Below, one piece after another: positions 1,992 through 12,157 of a stretch of DNA of 64,000 nucleotides. The number at the start of each line of letters is the position of its first letter. Within the stretch, counting starts at the first letter, position 1. The notes below the pieces were generated by a model. The model searched no databases and was not told the DNA's origin. It saw only the letters and a program-made list of their open reading frames with translations. Both the position numbers and the translations under genes were made by a program. Origin of the DNA: Theionarchaea archaeon (GTDB taxonomy: Archaea; Methanobacteriota_B; Thermococci; Methanofastidiosales; SZ-28-30); NCBI GenBank assembly GCA_018992685.1, contig JACVGT010000013.1:32001-96000 (forward strand), written 5' to 3'.

Positions 1992-2441
1992 ATGGCAGAC
2001 ATTATCGTCAACAGGAAGAGCTTCAAGCAACTTCCCAGAATGACCAGGGACTTCATGAAGCGGGCTTCTTCAGAAATCGATATCATAACCCGCTCTTTTA
2101 CCTGGGCAGATGATGAGACTCTGGAAACCATGTACGCTCTGATAAACAAAGGTGTTAGGATTAACATTGTGGGAAAATATGGAGATGAATCGAAAGAAAT
2201 CATTAAGCAGCTGATAAAGCTTGGTGCCACAGTAAAGCTTCACGAATTCGCTGGTGAAGCCCGTTTCATGATCATTGATGAGAAAGAAGTCGTTTTCGCC
2301 ATCAGAGAACCTCTCACTCCAACAGAACGGCACTATGTTGGTATCTTGATGAAGGATGAATCCACCGCACGAACAGTAAAACAGTACGTTTTTGATGCAA
2401 TATTCAAGGAGGCTGAGGAAGCATCCTATGTTGTCTCTTGA
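1992..2441 (+). CDS. Stand-alone TrmB-type effector / PLD-fold domain protein without HTH
   Basis: GVRINIV...ARFMIIDEKEVVF pattern; TATA-like element upstream; overlaps bshC start. Confidence 0.6.
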   Translation: MADIIVNRKSFKQLPRMTRDFMKRASSEIDIITRSFTWADDETLETMYALINKGVRINIVGKYGDESKEIIKQLIKLGATVKLHEFAGEARFMIIDEKEVVFAIREPLTPTERHYVGILMKDESTARTVKQYVFDAIFKEAEEASYVVS

Positions 2442-3948
2442 TCCTCGCCTTTACCTTTCAGGACTTCCCCTGGATTACTTCACCAACTTTTGCAAAGTTG
2501 CCTCCTATTTCTCTGCAGACTACCATACGATAATGTCAAAGAAAAGTGCTATATCTGATGAGGTTATTTCCTCCATTGAATCTTATAATAGAGAGATAGG
2601 AGCAAGTTCCCTCGTCTTTGAGAATATCGCCCGGTTGCAGGAGAACTCTCCCGTGGTGACCGGACAGCAGCCCTGCTTACTGACAGGACCATTGTTCGTC
2701 GTTTACAAGGCACTGACGGCAGTACTCCTGGCAGAAAAGCATGGGACGGTGCCCATATTCTGGAACGCCTCAGAGGATGATGATGCAGTCGAGGTAAACC
2801 ACATCTGGGTTCACAATACAAAGCTTGAAGAAATCTCCATTTCCCTTGAGTCAGGACCTTTCTTCACTTCAGATATCAGTCCTCAAGAGAAGACCCATGT
2901 AATCACCATGCTCAGAGAGTTGACACCCCCAACCGAGTTCCGCGAACCTGTTCTGGACATGATCAGTGCAAGTTCGGAAAGGTTTTCTCAGATGTTCTCT
3001 CAGCTCCTATCGACTTTGTGCAGCGAGTACGGACTTATCATGGTGGAACCACATCTTTTCTATGAACATGCTATTCCTCTCTATGAACAACTGATCACTC
3101 ATCCCTTGAGAGCCACAGCACTGGTGAATGAAGCGGGCAACCACCTTGAAGACATGGGATATAAAAGACAGGTGCACAAGCCAGCAGAGATGTGCAGTTT
3201 CTTCATTCTTGAACGTGGACACCGACATTCAGTAACCTTTGATGGAGTATTCCATGTGGAAGATGAATCGTTCACGACTCCAGAAATGCTGGCCTACCTA
3301 TATGATCATCCAGGACAGGTTATTTCGTCAGTGATCTCCAGGCCGCTCGTCCAGGACTTCCTCTTATCAACGGCGGCGTACTGTGCTGGACCAGGCGAGG
3401 TATCATATTTCGCCCAGATGAAACGCGTGTACGAGTTCTTCAAGGTCAAAGAACCTGCCATCGTGCCCAGGCTTGGAGCAACTCTCATGGAGCCCAAGGT
3501 GCGCAAAGTGCTGGAAAAGTACGCATTAGAGGTTTCTGAACTTAGAGAGCCGGAAAAGGTATTGAAATCAATAGTAAAGGAGAATATCGAAGAATTCTTT
3601 GATGTACAGAAGAAAGAGGTTTTTCAGATCATGGGAGGTATCCAGGAGTACATCACACAGGTAGACGAGAGTCTGAAAAGAACTGGGGCAGCCATGACAA
3701 ATCACATTCTGCAGGACCTCAAGAGGTTGGAAGACAAGACAGCCTCTGCTCTCAAGAAAAAAAACGAAATTGTACTGCAGCAGATAATGAAAGCCTCTTC
3801 CAACACATTTCCCAATAATGCTCTCCAGGAAAGGATGCTCAACATATTCCAGTATATAATCCGGTATGACACTGTCGTAGAAGCAATATACGAATCATTC
3901 CGTCACGCGGTTCCAGGAGAACACCTCATACTCCCCCTTGGTGATTGA
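2428..3948 (+). CDS. bshC: Bacillithiol cysteine-adding enzyme BshC
   Basis: VVTGQQ..L.TGPL..VYKA, PIFW.ASEDDD, SRPLVQD, GPGEVSYFAQ, LQER motifs; coiled-coil region; start re-assigned to ATG 2428. Confidence 0.9.
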   Translation: MLSLDPRLYLSGLPLDYFTNFCKVASYFSADYHTIMSKKSAISDEVISSIESYNREIGASSLVFENIARLQENSPVVTGQQPCLLTGPLFVVYKALTAVLLAEKHGTVPIFWNASEDDDAVEVNHIWVHNTKLEEISISLESGPFFTSDISPQEKTHVITMLRELTPPTEFREPVLDMISASSERFSQMFSQLLSTLCSEYGLIMVEPHLFYEHAIPLYEQLITHPLRATALVNEAGNHLEDMGYKRQVHKPAEMCSFFILERGHRHSVTFDGVFHVEDESFTTPEMLAYLYDHPGQVISSVISRPLVQDFLLSTAAYCAGPGEVSYFAQMKRVYEFFKVKEPAIVPRLGATLMEPKVRKVLEKYALEVSELREPEKVLKSIVKENIEEFFDVQKKEVFQIMGGIQEYITQVDESLKRTGAAMTNHILQDLKRLEDKTASALKKKNEIVLQQIMKASSNTFPNNALQERMLNIFQYIIRYDTVVEAIYESFRHAVPGEHLILPLGD

Positions 3949-4611
3949 ATGGATGTCCTTGCATTTTCACCTCATCCCGATGATGCCGAATTGGGAACTG
4001 GCGGCTTCCTCTTAGAGATGCGAAAAAAAGGGTATACCACAGGAATTGTGGATCTAACAGCTGGAGAACTGAGCAGCGCTGCCACTGCTGAAATCAGGGC
4101 GGCAGAATCAGAGGAAGCTTCTCGCCTTCTGGATCTAGAAGTCAGGGAAACCATGAACTTCAGAGACGGCAGCCTTACAGATTCATTTGACTCCCGGTTA
4201 CAGGTGGCAGAAATCATCAGAAGGTATAAGCCCCGGGTTGTGTTGGCGCCATACCACGAAGACCGTCATCCTGACCATGTGGCCTGTTCTCTCACGGTAA
4301 AGTCTGCTGTCCTCTATGCACGCCTCAAGAAACTCGGAGAACCACATTACCTCACCCACCTCTACTATTACATGCTGAATACTCCTTTTGCACCAACCTT
4401 CATCATGGATATATCTCATTCCTTCGAAAAGAAGATGGAAGTCCTTTCATGTTATAGATCTCAATTCGGGGCAGAGATTCCCCTTCTCAAAGACTACATA
4501 CCGCACGCACGGACAAAGGCCTCCTACTATGGATCATTGGTCTCTGTGGCATATGGTGAACCCTTTGGGATAGAAGGATTTTTAAAAGTAAGTGACCCTG
4601 TTAATCCATGA
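3949..4611 (+). CDS. bshB1: GlcNAc-malate deacetylase BshB1 (PIG-L family)
   Basis: SPHPDDAELG, DLTAGE, DRHPDH, YRSQF motifs; between bshC and bshA. Confidence 0.88.
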   Translation: MDVLAFSPHPDDAELGTGGFLLEMRKKGYTTGIVDLTAGELSSAATAEIRAAESEEASRLLDLEVRETMNFRDGSLTDSFDSRLQVAEIIRRYKPRVVLAPYHEDRHPDHVACSLTVKSAVLYARLKKLGEPHYLTHLYYYMLNTPFAPTFIMDISHSFEKKMEVLSCYRSQFGAEIPLLKDYIPHARTKASYYGSLVSVAYGEPFGIEGFLKVSDPVNP

Positions 4612-5687
4612 GAATTGGGATCACCTGTTACCCCACCTTTGGAGGGAGTGGCGTGCTGGCCTCAGAACTTGGCCGTCAGCTCTCCAAGACCCATGACGTG
4701 CATTTCATCTGCTATGCACGGCCCTTCCGTCTAGAAGGGACAGATATCCCTTTTCACAAAGTCGATGTTCTGGCATATCCCCTCTTTAAATTTCCCCCAT
4801 ATACGCTGGCGCTGGCCTCTAAAATGCTGGAAGTGGTCCAGGAAGAAACCCTGGATATCCTCCACGTTCATTATGCAGTTCCCCATTCCACATCTGCATA
4901 CTTGGCCAAGAAGCTACTCAAAGACTCCATCAAGGTCGTGACCACGCTGCATGGGACCGATGTCCAGCTCGTGGGACTAGATCCTTCGTACTACAGTATA
5001 ACGAAGTTCTCTATTGAACAGGCAGATGGTGTTTCTGCAGTCTCAGAATCTCTGAAGAATTCCACCAAGGAGAGATTCAACATTGAAAAGGATATTCAGG
5101 TCATTTACAACTTTGTGGATCCTGCTCGATACTGGACGGAGGACCATGAGAAAAAGGTAGTCACTCACATGTCCAATTTCAGGCATATTAAGAGAATTCC
5201 CGATGTTATTGATGCATTCTGTAAAATCTCGTCTTTGGTACCTGCAAACCTGTACCTGGTGGGTGATGGGCCAGACCTGCCGTTAGCTGAAGAAATGGTT
5301 AAGAAATGCAAGATACAAGACAAGACAACGTTTTTTGGAAATGTCTGCTCCATAGAGGAAATACTGGCCAGGACTGACATATTCCTTCTGCCCAGTGGAC
5401 AGGAGAGTTTCGGACTCGCAGCTCTTGAAGCTATGGCTTCCTCTGTGCCTGTGATAGCCACTAATGTAGGAGGACTACCTGAGTTTATCGATCATGGAGA
5501 AAATGGGTTCTTGTGCCCCTTGGGAGATACACAAGCCATGGCAGAATATGCAGTTGAGCTGCTCCGGGATGAAAACTATCGAAAGGAAGTTGGCAAGAAA
5601 GCCAGAAGAAAAGTCGAAAAATGGTTTACTCCTGAGATTATTGTACCCCAATATGAAGCTTTCTATGAATCAGTGTTAACAGCGTAA
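4608..5687 (+). CDS. bshA: GlcNAc-malate synthase BshA (GT4 glycosyltransferase)
   Basis: IGITCYPTFGGSG, HVHYAVPH, TTLHGTD, SNFR.IKR, ESFGLAALEAM motifs; ATGA-type overlap with bshB1. Confidence 0.93.
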   Translation: MRIGITCYPTFGGSGVLASELGRQLSKTHDVHFICYARPFRLEGTDIPFHKVDVLAYPLFKFPPYTLALASKMLEVVQEETLDILHVHYAVPHSTSAYLAKKLLKDSIKVVTTLHGTDVQLVGLDPSYYSITKFSIEQADGVSAVSESLKNSTKERFNIEKDIQVIYNFVDPARYWTEDHEKKVVTHMSNFRHIKRIPDVIDAFCKISSLVPANLYLVGDGPDLPLAEEMVKKCKIQDKTTFFGNVCSIEEILARTDIFLLPSGQESFGLAALEAMASSVPVIATNVGGLPEFIDHGENGFLCPLGDTQAMAEYAVELLRDENYRKEVGKKARRKVEKWFTPEIIVPQYEAFYESVLTA

Positions 5688-5770: not shown

Positions 5771-6682
5771 TTAGATTTCTACCTGCAGCCCCAGTTCATC
5801 CTGGAGCTCTTTGTATCTATTGCGGATGGTGACCTCAGTGACATTAGCCACATCTGAGACTTCCCGCTGTGTTTTTCTCTCGTCCTCCAAGATAGAAGCT
5901 ATGTAGAGCGAAGCGGCCGCGATGCCCTTAGGACTCCTACCAGAGAGTAGTTCTCTGTCGATTGCCTCTTTCAGTATTTCTGAAGCCTTCCTCTGGACTG
6001 CAGGGGATACTCCCAGTTGAGAGGCGAATCGAGGTAGGTAATCCATAGGATTAGTGGGAGGTAAATTGAAGCCCAGTTCCCGCATAATATAGCGGTAATC
6101 CTTGGCAATCTCCTTTTTTTCCACTCTGGCGTGTTCACTTATTTCATCCAGTGTCCGCGGCACTCTGCACTGGCGGCATGCAGCATAGAGGCAGGCAGAT
6201 GCCATCCCCTCTATGGATCTCCCTCTAATCAAATCTTCTTCCAGACACCGCCTGTACAGCACTGCTGCTGCTTCCCGAATATTCTTGGGTAATTTCAGAT
6301 GAGAGGACAGGCGCACAATCTCAGTCAGGGCAAAAGCCAAATTGCGAGCAGCTGAAGAGGAAACCTTCATCCTGCTCTGCCATTTGCGCATCCTGTAGAC
6401 CTGTGCCCTGCGCCTTGGAGAAAGGTCTCTGCCATGAACATCCTTGTTTCTCCAATCAATCTCTGTGGAAAGGCCCTTATCATGGATCATATATGTCATG
6501 GGGGCACCCGTGCGCTCCCTTTCATCTCTTTGCTCAGAGTCAAAAGCTCTCCATTCAGGACCCATATCGAGAATCCCTTCCTCGATCACCAACCCACAAT
6601 TGCTACACACTATCTCTGCCCTATCATAGTCCTGAACAAGGCCTTTGCTCTTGCATTCAGGACATATTTTGTCACGTAACAT
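5771..6682 (-). CDS. tfb: Transcription initiation factor IIB (TFB)
   Basis: CPEC...CSNCG Zn ribbon, GPEWRAF B-reader, two cyclin repeats, [12 protein letters not shown]. Confidence 0.97.
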
Positions 6683-6903: not shown

Positions 6904-8217
6904 TCAGACACTATCTTCCAAAAGCTTCTTCATCAGCTCCAGCTTCTTCTCTTTGGCAAATCGGAGTTTATTCATCTTCTTTAACTCTACCTGTCGGGTG
7001 AACAGCATGGTGTCAGGTTCCAGGTTCTCGTCCACCATGACATGAGACCCCACGATAGAATTGGGACCGATCCTCATCCCAGGCAAGATGGAAGCATTGA
7101 TGCCAGTCTTGCAGTTCTCCCCCATGACGCACCCGAACTTGTCCATCCCCGTTTCCACAGACTGCGCATTGATTTTCACCTTCACCTGCTTTTCATCAAA
7201 GCGGAAGTTGGCAGTGACTGTCCCCGACCCAAAAGAGCATCCATCGAGGATGATGGAGTCACCCACATAATTGGTGTGAAACCAGCAGTCGGCTCCGATG
7301 TAACAATTCTTTACCTCTGTAGAGAACCCAACCACTGTCCGTGCTCCGATATGAGAATAATCTCTCACCAGAGAGTTGTTCCCAATGATGCACCCTGGAC
7401 CCAGATACGCAGGCCCATGGACAGTGGCATACTCAAAGACTCTCACATCTTCTTCAATTATGACCTTGCCTTTTATGGTAGCTTTTTCAGAAATCTCCGC
7501 AGACTCTGCAACCCGGGGCAGTGCTGTGTCCATGAAATAACGTGTGGCTGCAAAGATGTGCCAGGGATACTTGACAGCAGTCCAGAACCCGTCATACATC
7601 ACGGGTGAAAACACAAATCCTTCCTTTATCATGGAAGTGAGGGCTTTCTCATACACGTCATCACGAGAACTTTCTGTCTTTTCCAGGAATTTCAACAGGG
7701 TATCGGCATCCCTGTGGTAGTGCACCACAAGGTTTACCAGATCGGAGGGTTCATTCCCCGCTCCGGGTTTTTCCATGATACCCTTGACTTTTCCTTGGTC
7801 AACTATGAGATACCCGCCCGGGAAGTATTTCTGCACCTTGTATCCAAGAATGCACGCATCACTCTCGCCTTCACGTGCAGCGAACATATTGTGGTACGCA
7901 GAAGATTCAAACAGGTCATTGGGGTTTACCACCAAGATTTCATCGCCTGAGATGACCTCTCTTGCAGCAAGGAGCGCATCTGCCATCCCTAGAGGATGTT
8001 TCTGCACCACGTAAGCATGAGCATTGCCAGCCACTTCTTTGATATCTGAAATATTCTCGGGGTTGGAGACGATGACAAAATCATTCACGCCTGCTCTCTG
8101 AGCCAGCTCGATTTGATGTAAGATGAGTTCTTTGCCCAGAAACTTTAGCAGACATTTCTCCTTTACAATAGGGAACATTCGTTTCCCCACGCCGCCTGCA
8201 AGGAAGACAATCTTCAT
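6904..8217 (-). CDS. glmU: Bifunctional sugar-1-phosphate nucleotidyltransferase/acetyltransferase (archaeal GlmU-like)
   Basis: LAGGVGKRM, EKP, hexapeptide LbH repeats, YVGDS...GTVTAN. Confidence 0.8.
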   Translation of the reverse strand: MKIVFLAGGVGKRMFPIVKEKCLLKFLGKELILHQIELAQRAGVNDFVIVSNPENISDIKEVAGNAHAYVVQKHPLGMADALLAAREVISGDEILVVNPNDLFESSAYHNMFAAREGESDACILGYKVQKYFPGGYLIVDQGKVKGIMEKPGAGNEPSDLVNLVVHYHRDADTLLKFLEKTESSRDDVYEKALTSMIKEGFVFSPVMYDGFWTAVKYPWHIFAATRYFMDTALPRVAESAEISEKATIKGKVIIEEDVRVFEYATVHGPAYLGPGCIIGNNSLVRDYSHIGARTVVGFSTEVKNCYIGADCWFHTNYVGDSIILDGCSFGSGTVTANFRFDEKQVKVKINAQSVETGMDKFGCVMGENCKTGINASILPGMRIGPNSIVGSHVMVDENLEPDTMLFTRQVELKKMNKLRFAKEKKLELMKKLLEDSV

Positions 8218-9569
8218 GGATCCACCTTCTCGAGAGCTTTTTCTACTATTTGGTTTCCTTCATTCAAAAAGGTTTCCATAGCAGATAGAGATTCAGACTC
8301 ACAGAGTACCCGTATCACAGGTTCAGTCCCACTTGGTCTGATCAATAGCCAGGAATCAGTAAATTCAAGGCGAATACCGTCCAGCAAGCTGACGTTCTCA
8401 GGAGACAACTGGGACAGGGAAGATTGAACCTCACTCATGAGCTGTTCTTTCCTGTTGTTGGGGCAGCGGATGCTCGATTTCGCAAAGTACATGGTGGGCA
8501 ACGAGGCAATAAACTGGTGGATTTGATGAGGATGGTCGATGTGCTCAAGCAGGAGAAGTGCAGCATACAGAGAATCAGGATGCATGCCTATTTCGGGCAA
8601 GACGTATACACCAACTTGTTCTACTCCAATGCAGGCATGTTTTTCTTTCAGAAGCTGTGCAACGTGAACATCCCCTACTTTCCCACGTTCCACTGTCCCC
8701 CCTGCCTTTCCTACAGCGCAGTCCAGAAGCCGCCCTGTTTCCACTGTGGTGGCCACCACCTTTCTGGAGGACTCCTTCACCACCAAATATGAAATGAAGG
8801 CAATCATCTCGTTGTATCCCAGGAATCCCCGGTCATCGCAAAATACTACCCTGTCAGCGTCCCCGTCGAAGCAAACAGCAAGATCAGCTTTTTTGTCCTT
8901 GAGGTATTGCACGGTCTGCTTCAGGGTGTCTTCCTTGGGCTCCGAAGGTCGAGAGGGAAACCTACCATCAGGGACATCATTTATTGGCAATACAGAGATG
9001 CCCATCTCCTCAAATAACTGGGAGGCGATTCCGGAAGCAGCTCCATTTCCGGGATCAACTACTACCTTTAGCTGAGTATCAACTGAGATCTTATCCTTCA
9101 CTGCTTCAAAATAGTGAGTGTGGGCATTCTCCTGTTTTGTCATGTGCCCCAGACTGCTCCAGGGCGCTGTTCTAAATGCTTTATCGAAATAAATCCTTTC
9201 GATGTACTGTTCCTGTTCGACAGAATAGCCAATCGTTGAGGGATTCCATAATTTGACCCCGTTGAACTCAGGGGGATTATGGGAAGCAGTGATCATCATG
9301 CCGGAAGCCATTTCCAATTCCCTGGTCAGAAAAGCCAGACATGGGGTGGGAAGTATCCCGAAATCCACCACATTCACGCCTGCAGAGAGAACTCCCGCGG
9401 TCAGACTGCTCTTGATCATATCCCGTGACAGCCGCGGATCAGTCGCCACACAAACCTGGGAATCTGGAGGTAGCGAGGAGCCCACAGCCTTTCCAAGGTT
9501 CAACGTACTCTCGGTGGTGATCTCTTCATTGACTACTCCCCGAACTCCACTGGTTCCGAATAACCTCAT
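8214..9569 (-). CDS. glmM: Phosphoglucosamine mutase / phosphohexomutase
   Basis: LFGTSGVRG, TASHNP, DGDADR, RPSGTEP motifs; overlaps glmU. Confidence 0.82.
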   Translation of the reverse strand: MRLFGTSGVRGVVNEEITTESTLNLGKAVGSSLPPDSQVCVATDPRLSRDMIKSSLTAGVLSAGVNVVDFGILPTPCLAFLTRELEMASGMMITASHNPPEFNGVKLWNPSTIGYSVEQEQYIERIYFDKAFRTAPWSSLGHMTKQENAHTHYFEAVKDKISVDTQLKVVVDPGNGAASGIASQLFEEMGISVLPINDVPDGRFPSRPSEPKEDTLKQTVQYLKDKKADLAVCFDGDADRVVFCDDRGFLGYNEMIAFISYLVVKESSRKVVATTVETGRLLDCAVGKAGGTVERGKVGDVHVAQLLKEKHACIGVEQVGVYVLPEIGMHPDSLYAALLLLEHIDHPHQIHQFIASLPTMYFAKSSIRCPNNRKEQLMSEVQSSLSQLSPENVSLLDGIRLEFTDSWLLIRPSGTEPVIRVLCESESLSAMETFLNEGNQIVEKALEKVDP

Positions 9570-9577
9570 TATACCAC

Positions 9578-11986
9578 CTAGTCTTCTTCGCTCTTCACCA
9601 CCGTGACAGCGCTGACCAGATCACTGTTCTCCAGTGTCATGGCGATGACGCCCTGGGTGGCCCTCCCCATCACTCTCATCCCTTTTGCAGGGATTCGGAT
9701 GAGTTTTCCCTGTTGCGATATGATCATTACCCCATCTTCACTGGTAACCGCCCTCATACCTGCGACGTTCCCGGTTCTGGAGGTGACTTTCATACATACC
9801 ACACCTTTCCCGCCTCTGTTCTGAATTGAATACTCAGAGAACTCTGTTCTCTTGGCATATCCTTTCTCCGTGACTGTCAGCACGCTTCCTTCTTCTGGTA
9901 TGGTAACCATTCCAATCACACCATCTCCGCGCCTCAATGTGATCCCTCTTACACCATGTGCGTTCCTTCCCATGGGGCGCACATCCTGCTCGTGGAACCT
10001 GATTGCCTTTCCTTTCTGTGTGGTGATGAACACTTCCTGGGTTCCATCAGTATGAATGACAGTGATCAGTTTGTCATCCCTGAGCTGGATGGCGATGATC
10101 CCACTGGGACGAGGATTGCCGAACTCGCTCAGTGCAATCTTCTTTATCATGCCCTCCCTGGTTGCCATGAGTAGGTATTCATCCTCAGGAAAATCATTCA
10201 CTGAAATGGCAGCAGTCACAGTCTCATCTGCAATCTTCAATAAGTTAATTAGTGGCTTTCCTCTCGCAGTTCGTGAAGACGTGGGAATCTGGTATGCTTT
10301 GGACCAGTACACCTTTCCTTTATCTGTGAAGAAGAGAATGTAGTCATGAGTAGAAACAATGAACAGGTGATCCACAAAATCCTCTTCCTTGGTTTCAATA
10401 CCGATAACGCCCTTTCCACCCCGACGTTGCCTGCGGTACTCGTCGATGGCTGTCCTCTTGATGTATCCGTCCCGGGTAATGGTGATTACCACATCTTCGT
10501 CAGAAATCAGGTCCTCCATGGTGAGGACAGCGCCTTCCTCAACAAGCTCCGATCTCCTCTCGTCTCCATAGTTCTCTTTGAGCTCAAGTAATTCACCCTT
10601 GATAACTTCCAGAATCGTCGCACGGCTAGCCAGAATTCCTTCCAGTCTACGTATCTCGCCTAGCGTTTCTTCCAGATCCCTGCGCAGGTTCTCGCGTTCC
10701 AGACCTACCAGTCGCTGCAATCGCATGTCCAGGATGGCTTTTGCCTGCTTTTCACTCAGGTCAAATCGAGACTGGAGCGCTTCTCTTGCTTCTTCCACCT
10801 TCTCAGATTGCCGTATTATGGTAATGACTTCATCAATATTATCCAGGGCTATGAGCAGTCCTTTCAGGATATGAGCCTTTTCCCTGGCTTTCTTCAGGTC
10901 AAACTCAGTTCTCTTTGTGATAACCTGTACTCGATATTCAATATACTGGTTCAGAATCTCTTTTAGTGAGAGAACTCTGGGTTCCCCTTCCACAAGGGCC
11001 AGCATGATTATGCCAAAGGTGGTTTGCAGCTGGGTGTGTTTAAACAATTGGTTCAGGACAATTTCAGGTGCGAAATCTCTGTGCACTTCAATGAGGATGC
11101 GCATTCCTTCCCGGTCAGACTCATCCCTCAGATCGGATATTCCCTCAATTCTCTTTCCTCTCACCAGAGTTGCTATGTCCTCTATGAGTTTTGACTTATT
11201 AACCTGGTAGGGGATTTCAGTGATCACGATTCGATTAACTCCATTTTTCTCAGATATGTCTGTTCTGGCCCGTAGGGTCAGTTTGCCTTTTCCACTGCGG
11301 TACGCCTTCTCAATACCATATTTTCCATAGATCAATCCTCCTGTAGGAAAATCTGGTGCCCTTATTACCTTCATCAGCCGAGTCATAGACACCTCTGGGT
11401 TGTCCGCCACCATAATCAAGGCATCCACAACTTCGCTCAAGTTATGAGGAGGAATATTCGTTGCCATCCCCACTGCAATTCCTGAGCTTCCATTAACCAG
11501 CAAATTCGGAAGTTTTCCAGGAAGCACAAGAGGCTCTGTTAAACTATCATCAAAATTTGGAACAAACTCCACAGTCTCCTTGTCAATATCTGCCAGAAGT
11601 TCCTGGGCAATGGGTGCCATCTTAACCTCGGTGTAGCGCATGGCAGCAGCAGAATCACCATCTACACTGCCAAAGTTACCCTGCCCGAAAACAAGAGGAT
11701 ACCGCAGGCTGAATTCCTGGACCATCCTGACCAGTGAATCATAGACAGCGGTCTCTCCATGAGGGTGATACTTACCCAAGACCTCTCCTACCACGCGTGC
11801 AGACTTCCGGGTGGGCTTATCTGCAGTGAGGCCCATCCGATCCATTGCATACAAGATTCGTCGGTGAACTGGCTTCAATCCATCCCTGACATCAGGAAGT
11901 GCACGACCCACAATAATTGACATCGCATAATCAATATATGACTCTTTCATCTCTCGTTCTAGGGTCGTTTCAATAACATTGGGCAT
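9578..11986 (-). CDS. gyrA: DNA gyrase subunit A
   Basis: RALPDVRDGLKPVHRR, AAAMRYTE catalytic Tyr, GyrA box QRRGGKG, beta-pinwheel repeats; start at 11986 inferred from TATA spacing. Confidence 0.97.
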   Translation of the reverse strand: MPNVIETTLEREMKESYIDYAMSIIVGRALPDVRDGLKPVHRRILYAMDRMGLTADKPTRKSARVVGEVLGKYHPHGETAVYDSLVRMVQEFSLRYPLVFGQGNFGSVDGDSAAAMRYTEVKMAPIAQELLADIDKETVEFVPNFDDSLTEPLVLPGKLPNLLVNGSSGIAVGMATNIPPHNLSEVVDALIMVADNPEVSMTRLMKVIRAPDFPTGGLIYGKYGIEKAYRSGKGKLTLRARTDISEKNGVNRIVITEIPYQVNKSKLIEDIATLVRGKRIEGISDLRDESDREGMRILIEVHRDFAPEIVLNQLFKHTQLQTTFGIIMLALVEGEPRVLSLKEILNQYIEYRVQVITKRTEFDLKKAREKAHILKGLLIALDNIDEVITIIRQSEKVEEAREALQSRFDLSEKQAKAILDMRLQRLVGLERENLRRDLEETLGEIRRLEGILASRATILEVIKGELLELKENYGDERRSELVEEGAVLTMEDLISDEDVVITITRDGYIKRTAIDEYRRQRRGGKGVIGIETKEEDFVDHLFIVSTHDYILFFTDKGKVYWSKAYQIPTSSRTARGKPLINLLKIADETVTAAISVNDFPEDEYLLMATREGMIKKIALSEFGNPRPSGIIAIQLRDDKLITVIHTDGTQEVFITTQKGKAIRFHEQDVRPMGRNAHGVRGITLRRGDGVIGMVTIPEEGSVLTVTEKGYAKRTEFSEYSIQNRGGKGVVCMKVTSRTGNVAGMRAVTSEDGVMIISQQGKLIRIPAKGMRVMGRATQGVIAMTLENSDLVSAVTVVKSEED

Positions 11987-12157
11987 GAAATCCCATGCTT
12001 TTGTTACCATTTAAAGCTTTTCAGAATGTTGGCACCCTCTCATCTGGCGCCCTGAGTTATGAGATATACAAATCTGAATAACAACGATGGCTGGAGACCT
12101 TCATAGACGTAGGAGATTTCACTCCGTGACATGGTGCATTGCATTGGTACCACACGT

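Follow-up and report, generated by a model that had tools for sequence, protein, structure and literature searches.

Gene Organization of the Locus

Bacillithiol (BSH) is regarded as a bacterial thiol, and all measurements of this protective compound to date come from bacteria. The stretch of DNA analyzed here (the window) comprises 64,000 nucleotides from an uncultured sediment archaeon of the Theionarchaea and carries, at positions 1992–5687 of the forward strand, a cluster of genes for the three enzymes of bacillithiol biosynthesis, BshC, BshB1, and BshA. The original prediction described this interval as a bshC-bshB1-bshA operon. The three genes are intact, and their products score above the equivalog cut-offs; however, the interval contains four open reading frames (ORFs), not three, as positions 1992–2441 belong to a separate gene, designated orfX. 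Judging by homology, the cluster is probably a working bacillithiol operon that was acquired horizontally by the Theionarchaea lineage. The window corresponds to contig 12 of a 3.03 Mb assembly (G000) in 45 contigs, with an estimated completeness of 91.2% and contamination of 0.71%.

All four genes are encoded on the + strand. The first, orfX (1992–2441, 149 aa), is read in a different frame than bshC and overlaps its start by 14 nt. The bshC gene (2428–3948, 506 aa) encodes the cysteine-adding enzyme. Its ORF was listed from a TTG codon at 2392, but the gene starts at the ATG at 2428, in agreement with the length of its closest homologues (505–506 aa). It abuts bshB1 (3949–4611, 220 aa), the gene for an N-acetylglucosamine (GlcNAc)-malate deacetylase with a PIG-L/LmbE fold, which in turn overlaps bshA by 4 nt. 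The product of bshA (4608–5687, 359 aa) is predicted to be a GT4-type UDP-GlcNAc:L-malate glycosyltransferase. A promoter-like element on the same strand (1956–1973), consisting of an A-rich stretch followed by ATATAAA, is centered approximately 25 nt upstream of the orfX ATG.

Identity of the Three Enzymes

BshA is matched by the NCBIfam model TIGR03999 with 485.1 bits against a cut-off of 273.7, and its Pfam domains are of the GT4/GT1 type. It aligns over its full length (residues 1–357) with the structures of Bacillus anthracis BshA (2jjm/3mbo, E ~3e-113) and B. subtilis BshA (5d00, E 5e-98). Both the E-S-F-G motif and the lysine that follows the S-N segment are present when the protein is aligned to B. 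anthracis BshA. The E-S-F-G motif is described as contacting GlcNAc, and the lysine as lying beside a flexible S-N segment (PMC10361700).

BshB1 scores 213.3 bits on TIGR04001 (cut-off 182.5) and 92.3 bits on PF02585. The score on the rival BshB2 model (48.3 bits) is far below the cut-off, as is that on the MshB model. The best structural matches are 1uan (Thermus TT1542, E 1.2e-45), 2ixd (B. cereus, 1.8e-39), and 6p2t, which is named BshB1 (2.6e-33). The H-P-D-D and H-P-D-H motifs, which are taken here to be zinc-binding, align with those of 1uan and 2ixd. BshC, for which there is a single match in the whole G000 assembly, reaches 342.7 bits on TIGR03998 against a cut-off of 265.8. It contains the Rossmann-like N-terminal and coiled-coil C-terminal domains (PF10079, 220 bits, and PF24850, 86.8 bits) and matches the structure of B. 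subtilis BshC (PDB 4wbd) with an E-value of 2.3e-39.

The mycothiol pathway of Actinobacteria, MshA-MshB-MshC(-MshD), follows the same logic, in which a GT4 glycosyltransferase is followed by a PIG-L deacetylase and by the addition of cysteine to a glucosamine (GlcN) glycoside. The proteins of the window nevertheless differ from it: the MshA model gives 59.7 bits against a cut-off of 462.5 and the MshB model 25 against 224.35, and the cysteine-adding enzyme is of the BshC type and not a CysRS-like MshC.

Genomic Context and Contig Integrity

Convergent to the operon and downstream of bshA lies tfb (5771–6682, − strand), the gene for transcription factor B, which is outside the pathway. Its product passes NF001658 (478 bits against 384) and contains TFIIB repeat and Zn-ribbon Pfam domains; the gene serves as the archaeal anchor of the locus. 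It is followed on the same strand by an archaeal GlmU-like bifunctional sugar-1-phosphate nucleotidylyl/acetyltransferase gene (6904–8217; TIGR03992, 282.5 bits, slightly below the cut-off of 292.1) and by archaeal glmM (8214–9569; TIGR03990, 449.5 against 439). Upstream of orfX, a Sir2/CobB deacylase and an eIF-2B-family protein are encoded. The archaeal tfb, the adjacent archaeal-type glmM, and a Theionarchaea archaeon as the closest relative agree with the archaeal host that had been proposed. Among species-representative genomes, the closest BshC locus is that of a Theionarchaea archaeon (78% identity), followed by that of an uncultured Thermococci archaeon (58%).

Since the enzymes are of bacterial type and BshA is very near that of Bacillus, it is conceivable that a bacterial bsh fragment was joined to archaeal DNA during assembly or entered as contamination. 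The conservation of the locus makes this explanation extremely improbable. In L002 and L003, the tblastn identities of which equal those of the loci in the related genomes G032 and G033, the surroundings are maintained: L002 keeps the order Sir2, eIF2B-like, orfX, bshC, bshB1, bshA, tfb, glmU-like, and glmM, and L003 keeps orfX-bshC-bshB1-bshA-tfb. In all eight metagenome loci retrieved with orfX as bait, bshC is located directly downstream with the same overlap. In these loci, bshB1 follows in seven, bshA in six, and tfb in five, and every miss coincides with the end of the fetched locus. The same junctions, both upstream and downstream, are therefore found in two related assemblies and in eight metagenome contigs wherever the loci reach. 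Moreover, the GC content across the locus is even (0.46–0.48) and the contamination estimate is low. A chimera at the bshA/tfb junction, which had been named as a possible refutation of the original prediction, is excluded by this synteny in independent assemblies.

The frames of bshC, bshB1, and bshA are intact in G000, G032, G033, and every metagenome locus reaching far enough. Among clade members, identity is 52–58% for BshC and 73–79% for BshA, and TFB is 97–99.7% identical across related loci. In locus L053, identity to the proteins of the window is 54% for Sir2, 53% for the eIF2B-like protein, 52% for BshC, 65% for BshB1, 73% for BshA, 91% for orfX, and 97% for TFB, which makes the conservation of orfX striking.

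Divergence of BshC and the EDDD Motif

Residues 116–119 of the window BshC are E-D-D-D and stand opposite the EDHD of B. subtilis BshC in the alignment with 4wbd. The original prediction had pointed out this replacement of the usual EDHD; the observation holds, although the histidine itself is not universal. EDDD is found in all 32 BshC proteins of the Theionarchaea type, whereas all nine of the Bathyarchaeia type have EDHD. Among the other nearest relatives with a length of at least 440 aa (n = 78), histidine is present in 58 (52 with EDHD and 6 with DDHD) and absent from 20. The Bathyarchaeota BshC of locus L004 also carries EDDD. Furthermore, the window BshC keeps 25 of the 25 invariant columns of a 43-sequence alignment, with D117 among them. 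As read from these alignments, EDDD is a clade signature and not a mark of inactivation. Taken alone, it would constitute weak evidence for a different product, because the histidine is likewise missing from the 20 other relatives.

Distribution and Origin of the Operon

The original prediction called for profile searches and a phylogeny across archaea. These were carried out for the phylum, for the class of the Bathyarchaeia relative G134, and for BshC as a tree. The phylum sample consisted of 133 genomes, namely 4 of the family of G000 (f1) and 129 of five other families. BshC above the cut-off is present in 4/4 f1 genomes and in 0/129 of the others; within the phylum, it is thus restricted to f1. 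In the Bathyarchaeia class, canonical BshC was detected in 2 of 301 sampled genomes.

In a protein search with BshC, 7,999 candidates were scored and 789 of them reached E ≤ 1e-10; the best 120 were examined. These fall into three bands. The first consists of Theionarchaea proteins with 50–82% identity, some of which are named BshC by the National Center for Biotechnology Information (NCBI) for a Theionarchaea archaeon and a Candidatus Methanofastidiosia archaeon. The second, with 34–38% identity, includes a BshC from a Candidatus Bathyarchaeota archaeon. The third is bacterial with at most 35% identity, and its labeled members belong to Abyssobacteria, Salinibacter, Kryptonium, and Bacteroidetes.

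A maximum likelihood tree was calculated for 65 rows drawn from these 120 proteins and from locus translations (LG+G4, SH-aLRT support only, unrooted); most of the nearly identical Theionarchaea sequences and roughly half of the bacterial ones were omitted. In this tree, the Theionarchaea proteins form a clade (10 rows, SH-aLRT 100) whose sister group is of the Bathyarchaeia type (12 rows, 96), and the two together are supported with 96. Several of the Bathyarchaeia-type rows are unlabeled, and one is labeled "bacterium, partial". The branch leading to the Theionarchaea clade is long (0.45).

The full bacillithiol pathway is reported in 3,842 bacterial species (PMC12719100). Because the archaeal occurrence is patchy compared with this number, transfer of the bacillithiol genes from bacteria, followed by spread between archaea, is favored. 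As the BshC tree has no root, this direction is inferred.

The family itself contains two BshC lineages. G031, which belongs to another genus of f1, also has bshC-bshB1-bshA (locus L009, G031:C3:1181-5674), but its BshC shares just 35% identity with that of the window, scores 436 bits, and carries EDHD. Since G031 has a Bathyarchaeia-type gene and no orfX, the two f1 genera hold different BshC lineages. Either they gained bshC separately, or the lineage of one of them (g1) diverged very fast.

The orfX Gene

The orfX product has no match in NCBIfam, and its Pfam matches are weak: 25.0 bits to PF11495 (TrmB C-terminal) against a cut-off of 22.2, and 22.9 bits to PF13091 (PLDc_2), below the cut-off of 27. 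Of 39 candidates from a word-index search, 29 reached E ≤ 0.001; these homologues are 82–95% identical, and all that carry an organism label are from Theionarchaea or "Methanofastidiosia". A profile search of 1.84 billion representatives yielded only 17 proteins at E ≤ 0.001. These include one protein of 148 aa with 56% identity and several of 244–270 aa that are matched at their C-terminal part. Among seven such longer proteins, a TrmB winged helix-turn-helix (wHTH) domain was detected in five (three above the Pfam cut-off) and an "inactive HKD" domain in two. A look-up in a protein atlas pointed only weakly to small archaeal proteins with a TrmB domain (score 0.91).

The AlphaFold2 (AF2) model of orfX, based on a shallow alignment, is mediocre (mean pLDDT 67.9). 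The Foldseek search with this model returned single-domain proteins of the PLD fold, namely Zucchini (the best match, E 1.8e-5), NucT, and PLD3, together with TrmBL2 (5bpd), with TM values of approximately 0.5. The lysine of the HKD motif is absent, with E-F following H84. Little or no variation is seen at H84 and across a long R-E-P-L-T-P-T-E-x-H-Y stretch. The protein therefore resembles the C-terminal PLD-like (inactive-HKD) domain of TrmB and TrmBL2, but differs from these regulators in that it is a stand-alone protein of 149 aa without a DNA-binding domain, always overlaps bshC, is conserved at 82–95%, and is found only in the Theionarchaea lineage.

Among the genomes tested, orfX occurs in G000, G032, and G033, which are those with BshC of the EDDD type, and was not found in G031, G134, or G135. 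A 200-aa ORF upstream of bshC in G031 was considered as an analogue of orfX and rejected, given that it has no Pfam match and an hhalign probability of 0.1%. The only paralogue-like match in G000 is located at C22:10499-10900 (33% identity, E 2.7e-4). It belongs to a 279-aa protein (L021, 1489–2328, − strand) with a weak match to TrmBL1, which is consistent with descent of orfX from a TrmB-type regulator. In a UniProt count reported in a 2022 paper, no TrmB with a C-terminal sensing domain is listed for Theionarchaea (PMC9426492).

The 18-nt block at 1956–1973 is invariant in all three aligned Theionarchaea intergenic regions, while the rest of the spacer is unconserved in the most distant of them. 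The ATATAAA element may thus be an archaeal BRE/TATA promoter, which suggests that the operon transcript is leaderless or has a short leader and starts at orfX. The orfX product is read as a co-transcribed protein under strong constraint that binds rather than catalyzes. It may have arisen from a TrmB-type regulator by loss of the DNA-binding domain and act as a sensor or regulator, or it may be a partner of BshC; the favored guess is that it regulates the operon or BshC by sensing a small molecule or binding a protein. The more specific proposal that this near-invariant, clade-specific protein is devoted to the addition of cysteine, as a partner or regulator translationally coupled to the fast-evolving BshC that lacks the histidine, is regarded as rather doubtful. 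A complex prediction for orfX and BshC from two alignments gave a score of 0.06 (mark 0.32) and provides evidence neither way. If orfX were a BshC partner, it could be the first co-encoded accessory factor of BshC and offer a route to reconstituting the BshC reaction.

Substrates, Users, and Recycling of the Predicted Thiol

The glmM and glmU-like genes, located approximately 1.2 kb from bshA just past tfb, and both kept in L002, probably supply UDP-GlcNAc, the donor for BshA. All four f1 genomes encode both malic enzyme (PF00390) and a class I fumarase (PF05681), and consequently L-malate can be made.

The S-transferases that use bacillithiol or mycothiol belong to the DinB_2 superfamily. Two DinB_2 genes are present in G000 (C7:5271-5651 and C12:15145-15483); their products score 45.3 and 44.5 bits (cut-off 24.8) and are assigned to the superfamily only. 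DinB_2 proteins above the cut-off are present in 4/4 f1 genomes and in 0/129 of the other genomes of the phylum, apart from one sub-threshold match. The restriction of both BshC and DinB_2 to this family is compatible with gene transfer. As controls, B. subtilis, Thermus, Deinococcus, Synechococcus, and Bacteroides each gave a match, compared with 0/4 archaeal controls. In the Bathyarchaeia loci L004 and L006, a divergent DinB_2 gene adjoins bshC. The one in L006 scores 53.7 bits and also has a weak match to a mycothiol S-transferase family, and the one in L004, with 24.8 bits, just reaches the cut-off.

Bacilliredoxins accompany bacillithiol in Firmicutes, where they are accessory and lie outside the biosynthetic definition. 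G000 encodes two flavoproteins resembling thioredoxin reductase (TrxR), at C9:22344-23306 (L012, 1237–2199) and C8:37072-37968 (L013, 1252–2148). On TIGR01292, one of them passes (382.8 bits) and the other fails (244.8 bits). The latter is the best, although far sub-threshold, match to YpdA/Bdr in G000 and may represent an alternative disulfide reductase.

Proposed Pathway and Alternative Explanations

In the proposed mechanism, orfX-bshC-bshB1-bshA would form one four-gene operon, most likely acquired from bacteria and most likely transcribed from the conserved TATA-like element that precedes orfX. BshA would transfer GlcNAc from UDP-GlcNAc to L-malate, the product would be deacetylated by BshB1, and attachment of cysteine by BshC would then yield bacillithiol (Cys-GlcN-malate). 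UDP-GlcNAc could be provided by the products of the adjacent glmM and glmU-like genes, and malate by malic enzyme and the class I fumarase, the genes for which lie in other parts of the genome. Bacillithiol would then serve as a cofactor at least for S-transferases of the DinB_2 type, and reduction of its disulfide would require a system different from the known Bdr/Brx proteins. The enzyme assignments are supported, and the earlier claim that the organism makes bacillithiol or a close variant is probably correct.

Several points weigh against a working bacillithiol pathway. According to a 2020 review, there is no record of BSH in any archaeon (PMC7278568). Attempts to reconstitute the BshC reaction have not succeeded for any organism, bacteria included, possibly because a protein or cofactor is missing (PMC5790435); for this reason, function is assigned by homology only. 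In this clade, BshC has diverged more than the other enzymes of the operon, it lacks the motif histidine, and its model score is lower than that of Bathyarchaeia-type proteins (436–448 bits). The tree of BshC is unrooted, covers only the best 120 matches, and includes many unlabeled rows. A malate dehydrogenase of the LDH/MDH type was not found (PF00056, 0/1 genome; PF02615, 0/4 f1 genomes). The four f1 genomes are kin, and the co-occurrence of BshC and DinB_2 consequently counts as approximately one evolutionary event. Finally, the genes for Bdr and Brx, which the original prediction proposed to look for elsewhere, were not found in G000: the best Bdr/YpdA match (TIGR04018) is 80.4 bits against a cut-off of 339.9, and BrxA/B (TIGR04191) and BrxC/YtxJ (TIGR04019) gave no match at E ≤ 0.001. 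Because this assembly is 91% complete, their absence is unproven.

Alternatively, the operon may make a variant of bacillithiol, for example one with a different acceptor acid or amino acid or with an additional modification, owing to a diverged BshC (EDDD, long branch) that works with the clade-specific orfX. The contrast between EDDD in 32/32 Theionarchaea-type and EDHD in 9/9 Bathyarchaeia-type proteins, the clade branch of 0.45, the occurrence of orfX only with this type of BshC, and the lack of a detected classical malate dehydrogenase are in line with such a variant. However, the enzyme that sets the acceptor, BshA, is the best conserved of the three (485 bits, full-length E-values of 1e-113 and 5e-98), the histidine is also absent from other relatives, with EDDD recurring in Bathyarchaeota, and other sources of malate are encoded. 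A variant product is accordingly considered unlikely. It is less probable still that the acquisition is decaying or repurposed, so that the pathway stops at GlcNAc-malate or GlcN-malate, or leads to another glycoside, and BshC is no cysteine ligase. BshC is the fastest-evolving protein of the operon, Bdr and Brx were not found, and the shortening of bshA to approximately 135 aa in Bathyarchaeota G133/L004 indicates that decay occurs in archaea. Decay of the window operon is nevertheless difficult to reconcile with the intact frames in G000, G032, G033, and the metagenome loci reaching far enough, with the retention of all 25 invariant columns in BshC, and with a translationally coupled gene order that is strictly kept while flanking genes have diverged to 53–54% identity.

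Relation to Earlier Reports and Significance

The original prediction implied that bacillithiol genes in an archaeon were new. This part does not stand, as the 2020 review of Rawat and Maupin-Furlow already lists archaeal InterPro hits, 39 for BshA and 39 for BshC, most of them from Asgard archaea, and suggests that archaea may make BSH (PMC7278568). Proteins of Theionarchaea, "Methanofastidiosia", and Bathyarchaeota are also already named BshC by NCBI. In a 2025 paper on NmbA, a RefSeq survey records no archaeon with a complete pathway (PMC12719100). A search of the literature joining bacillithiol with Theionarchaea or Bathyarchae found no report of the operons described here. Two papers returned by it were set aside as unrelated co-mentions (PMC9426492, PMC8261052). 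The kind of system is therefore known and its archaeal occurrence was already predicted; new are the Theionarchaea host lineage, the three fully canonical enzymes, the co-gained DinB_2 genes, and orfX.

The Theionarchaea represent one euryarchaeal lineage with a fully canonical three-enzyme pathway of bacterial type, unlike the divergent clusters of archaeal type. This makes them a promising lineage in which to search for genuine archaeal BSH. If the proposed pathway is correct, BSH would join coenzyme A (CoA), gamma-Glu-Cys, and coenzymes M and B (CoM/CoB) among the known archaeal thiols. The operon also raises the questions of what reduces the disulfide without Bdr/Brx and what role a near-invariant orfX plays ahead of BshC, a biochemically unsolved enzyme.

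Comparison with Bacterial and Bathyarchaeia Systems

The three families are the same as in the bacterial BshA-BshB1(/B2)-BshC system of B. subtilis, B. anthracis, Staphylococcus aureus, Thermus, and Deinococcus, and candidates for S-transferases of the DinB superfamily are likewise present. The differences include the archaeal host and the arrangement of the genes in one tight C-B1-A operon behind an extra gene, whereas in B. subtilis bshA-bshB1 and bshC are located in separate operons (PMC5790435). In addition, the BshC histidine is replaced by aspartate, and Bdr/YpdA, BrxA/B, and YtxJ were not found in G000.

In the Bathyarchaeia class, a second and divergent bsh-like cluster is common. A BshC-like protein scoring 20–94 bits, well under the cut-off, is present in 61 of the 301 sampled genomes. 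Most of its open frames have a length of approximately 580–600 aa, and the two examined contain four cysteines (Cx4C...CxxC). Ten such loci were fetched (L034–L043, from G361, G316, G376, G298, G352, G289, G337, G271, G397, and G292). A BshA-like GT4 gene, the product of which is 36–44% identical to the window BshA, adjoins the BshC-like gene in 10/10, and the one in L037 passes TIGR03999 with 388.5 bits. A BshB-like PIG-L deacetylase is encoded in 7 of the 10 fetched flanks; the only one scored, that of L041, is below the cut-off (90.4 against 182.5). The flank of L034 also holds a gene for a thioredoxin-fold protein. These clusters resemble the window operon in bringing together a BshA-like GT4, a PIG-L deacetylase, and a BshC-like protein in archaea. 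They differ in that their BshC-like protein of approximately 580 aa fails the model (72.9 against 265.8 bits) and has a four-cysteine element, while the window BshC is canonical and lacks this element.

In the Bathyarchaeota locus L004 (G133), the bshA gene that follows intact bshC and bshB1 is cut to approximately 135 aa (8195–8602). No other BshA above the cut-off was found in G133, where the best match is 160 bits. The truncation is possibly due to pathway decay or to an assembly error.

Further along the window, a gene for DNA gyrase subunit A (9578–12010, − strand; PF00521, 554.6 bits) is of bacterial type, although it lies in an archaeal contig, and it is kept in L002.

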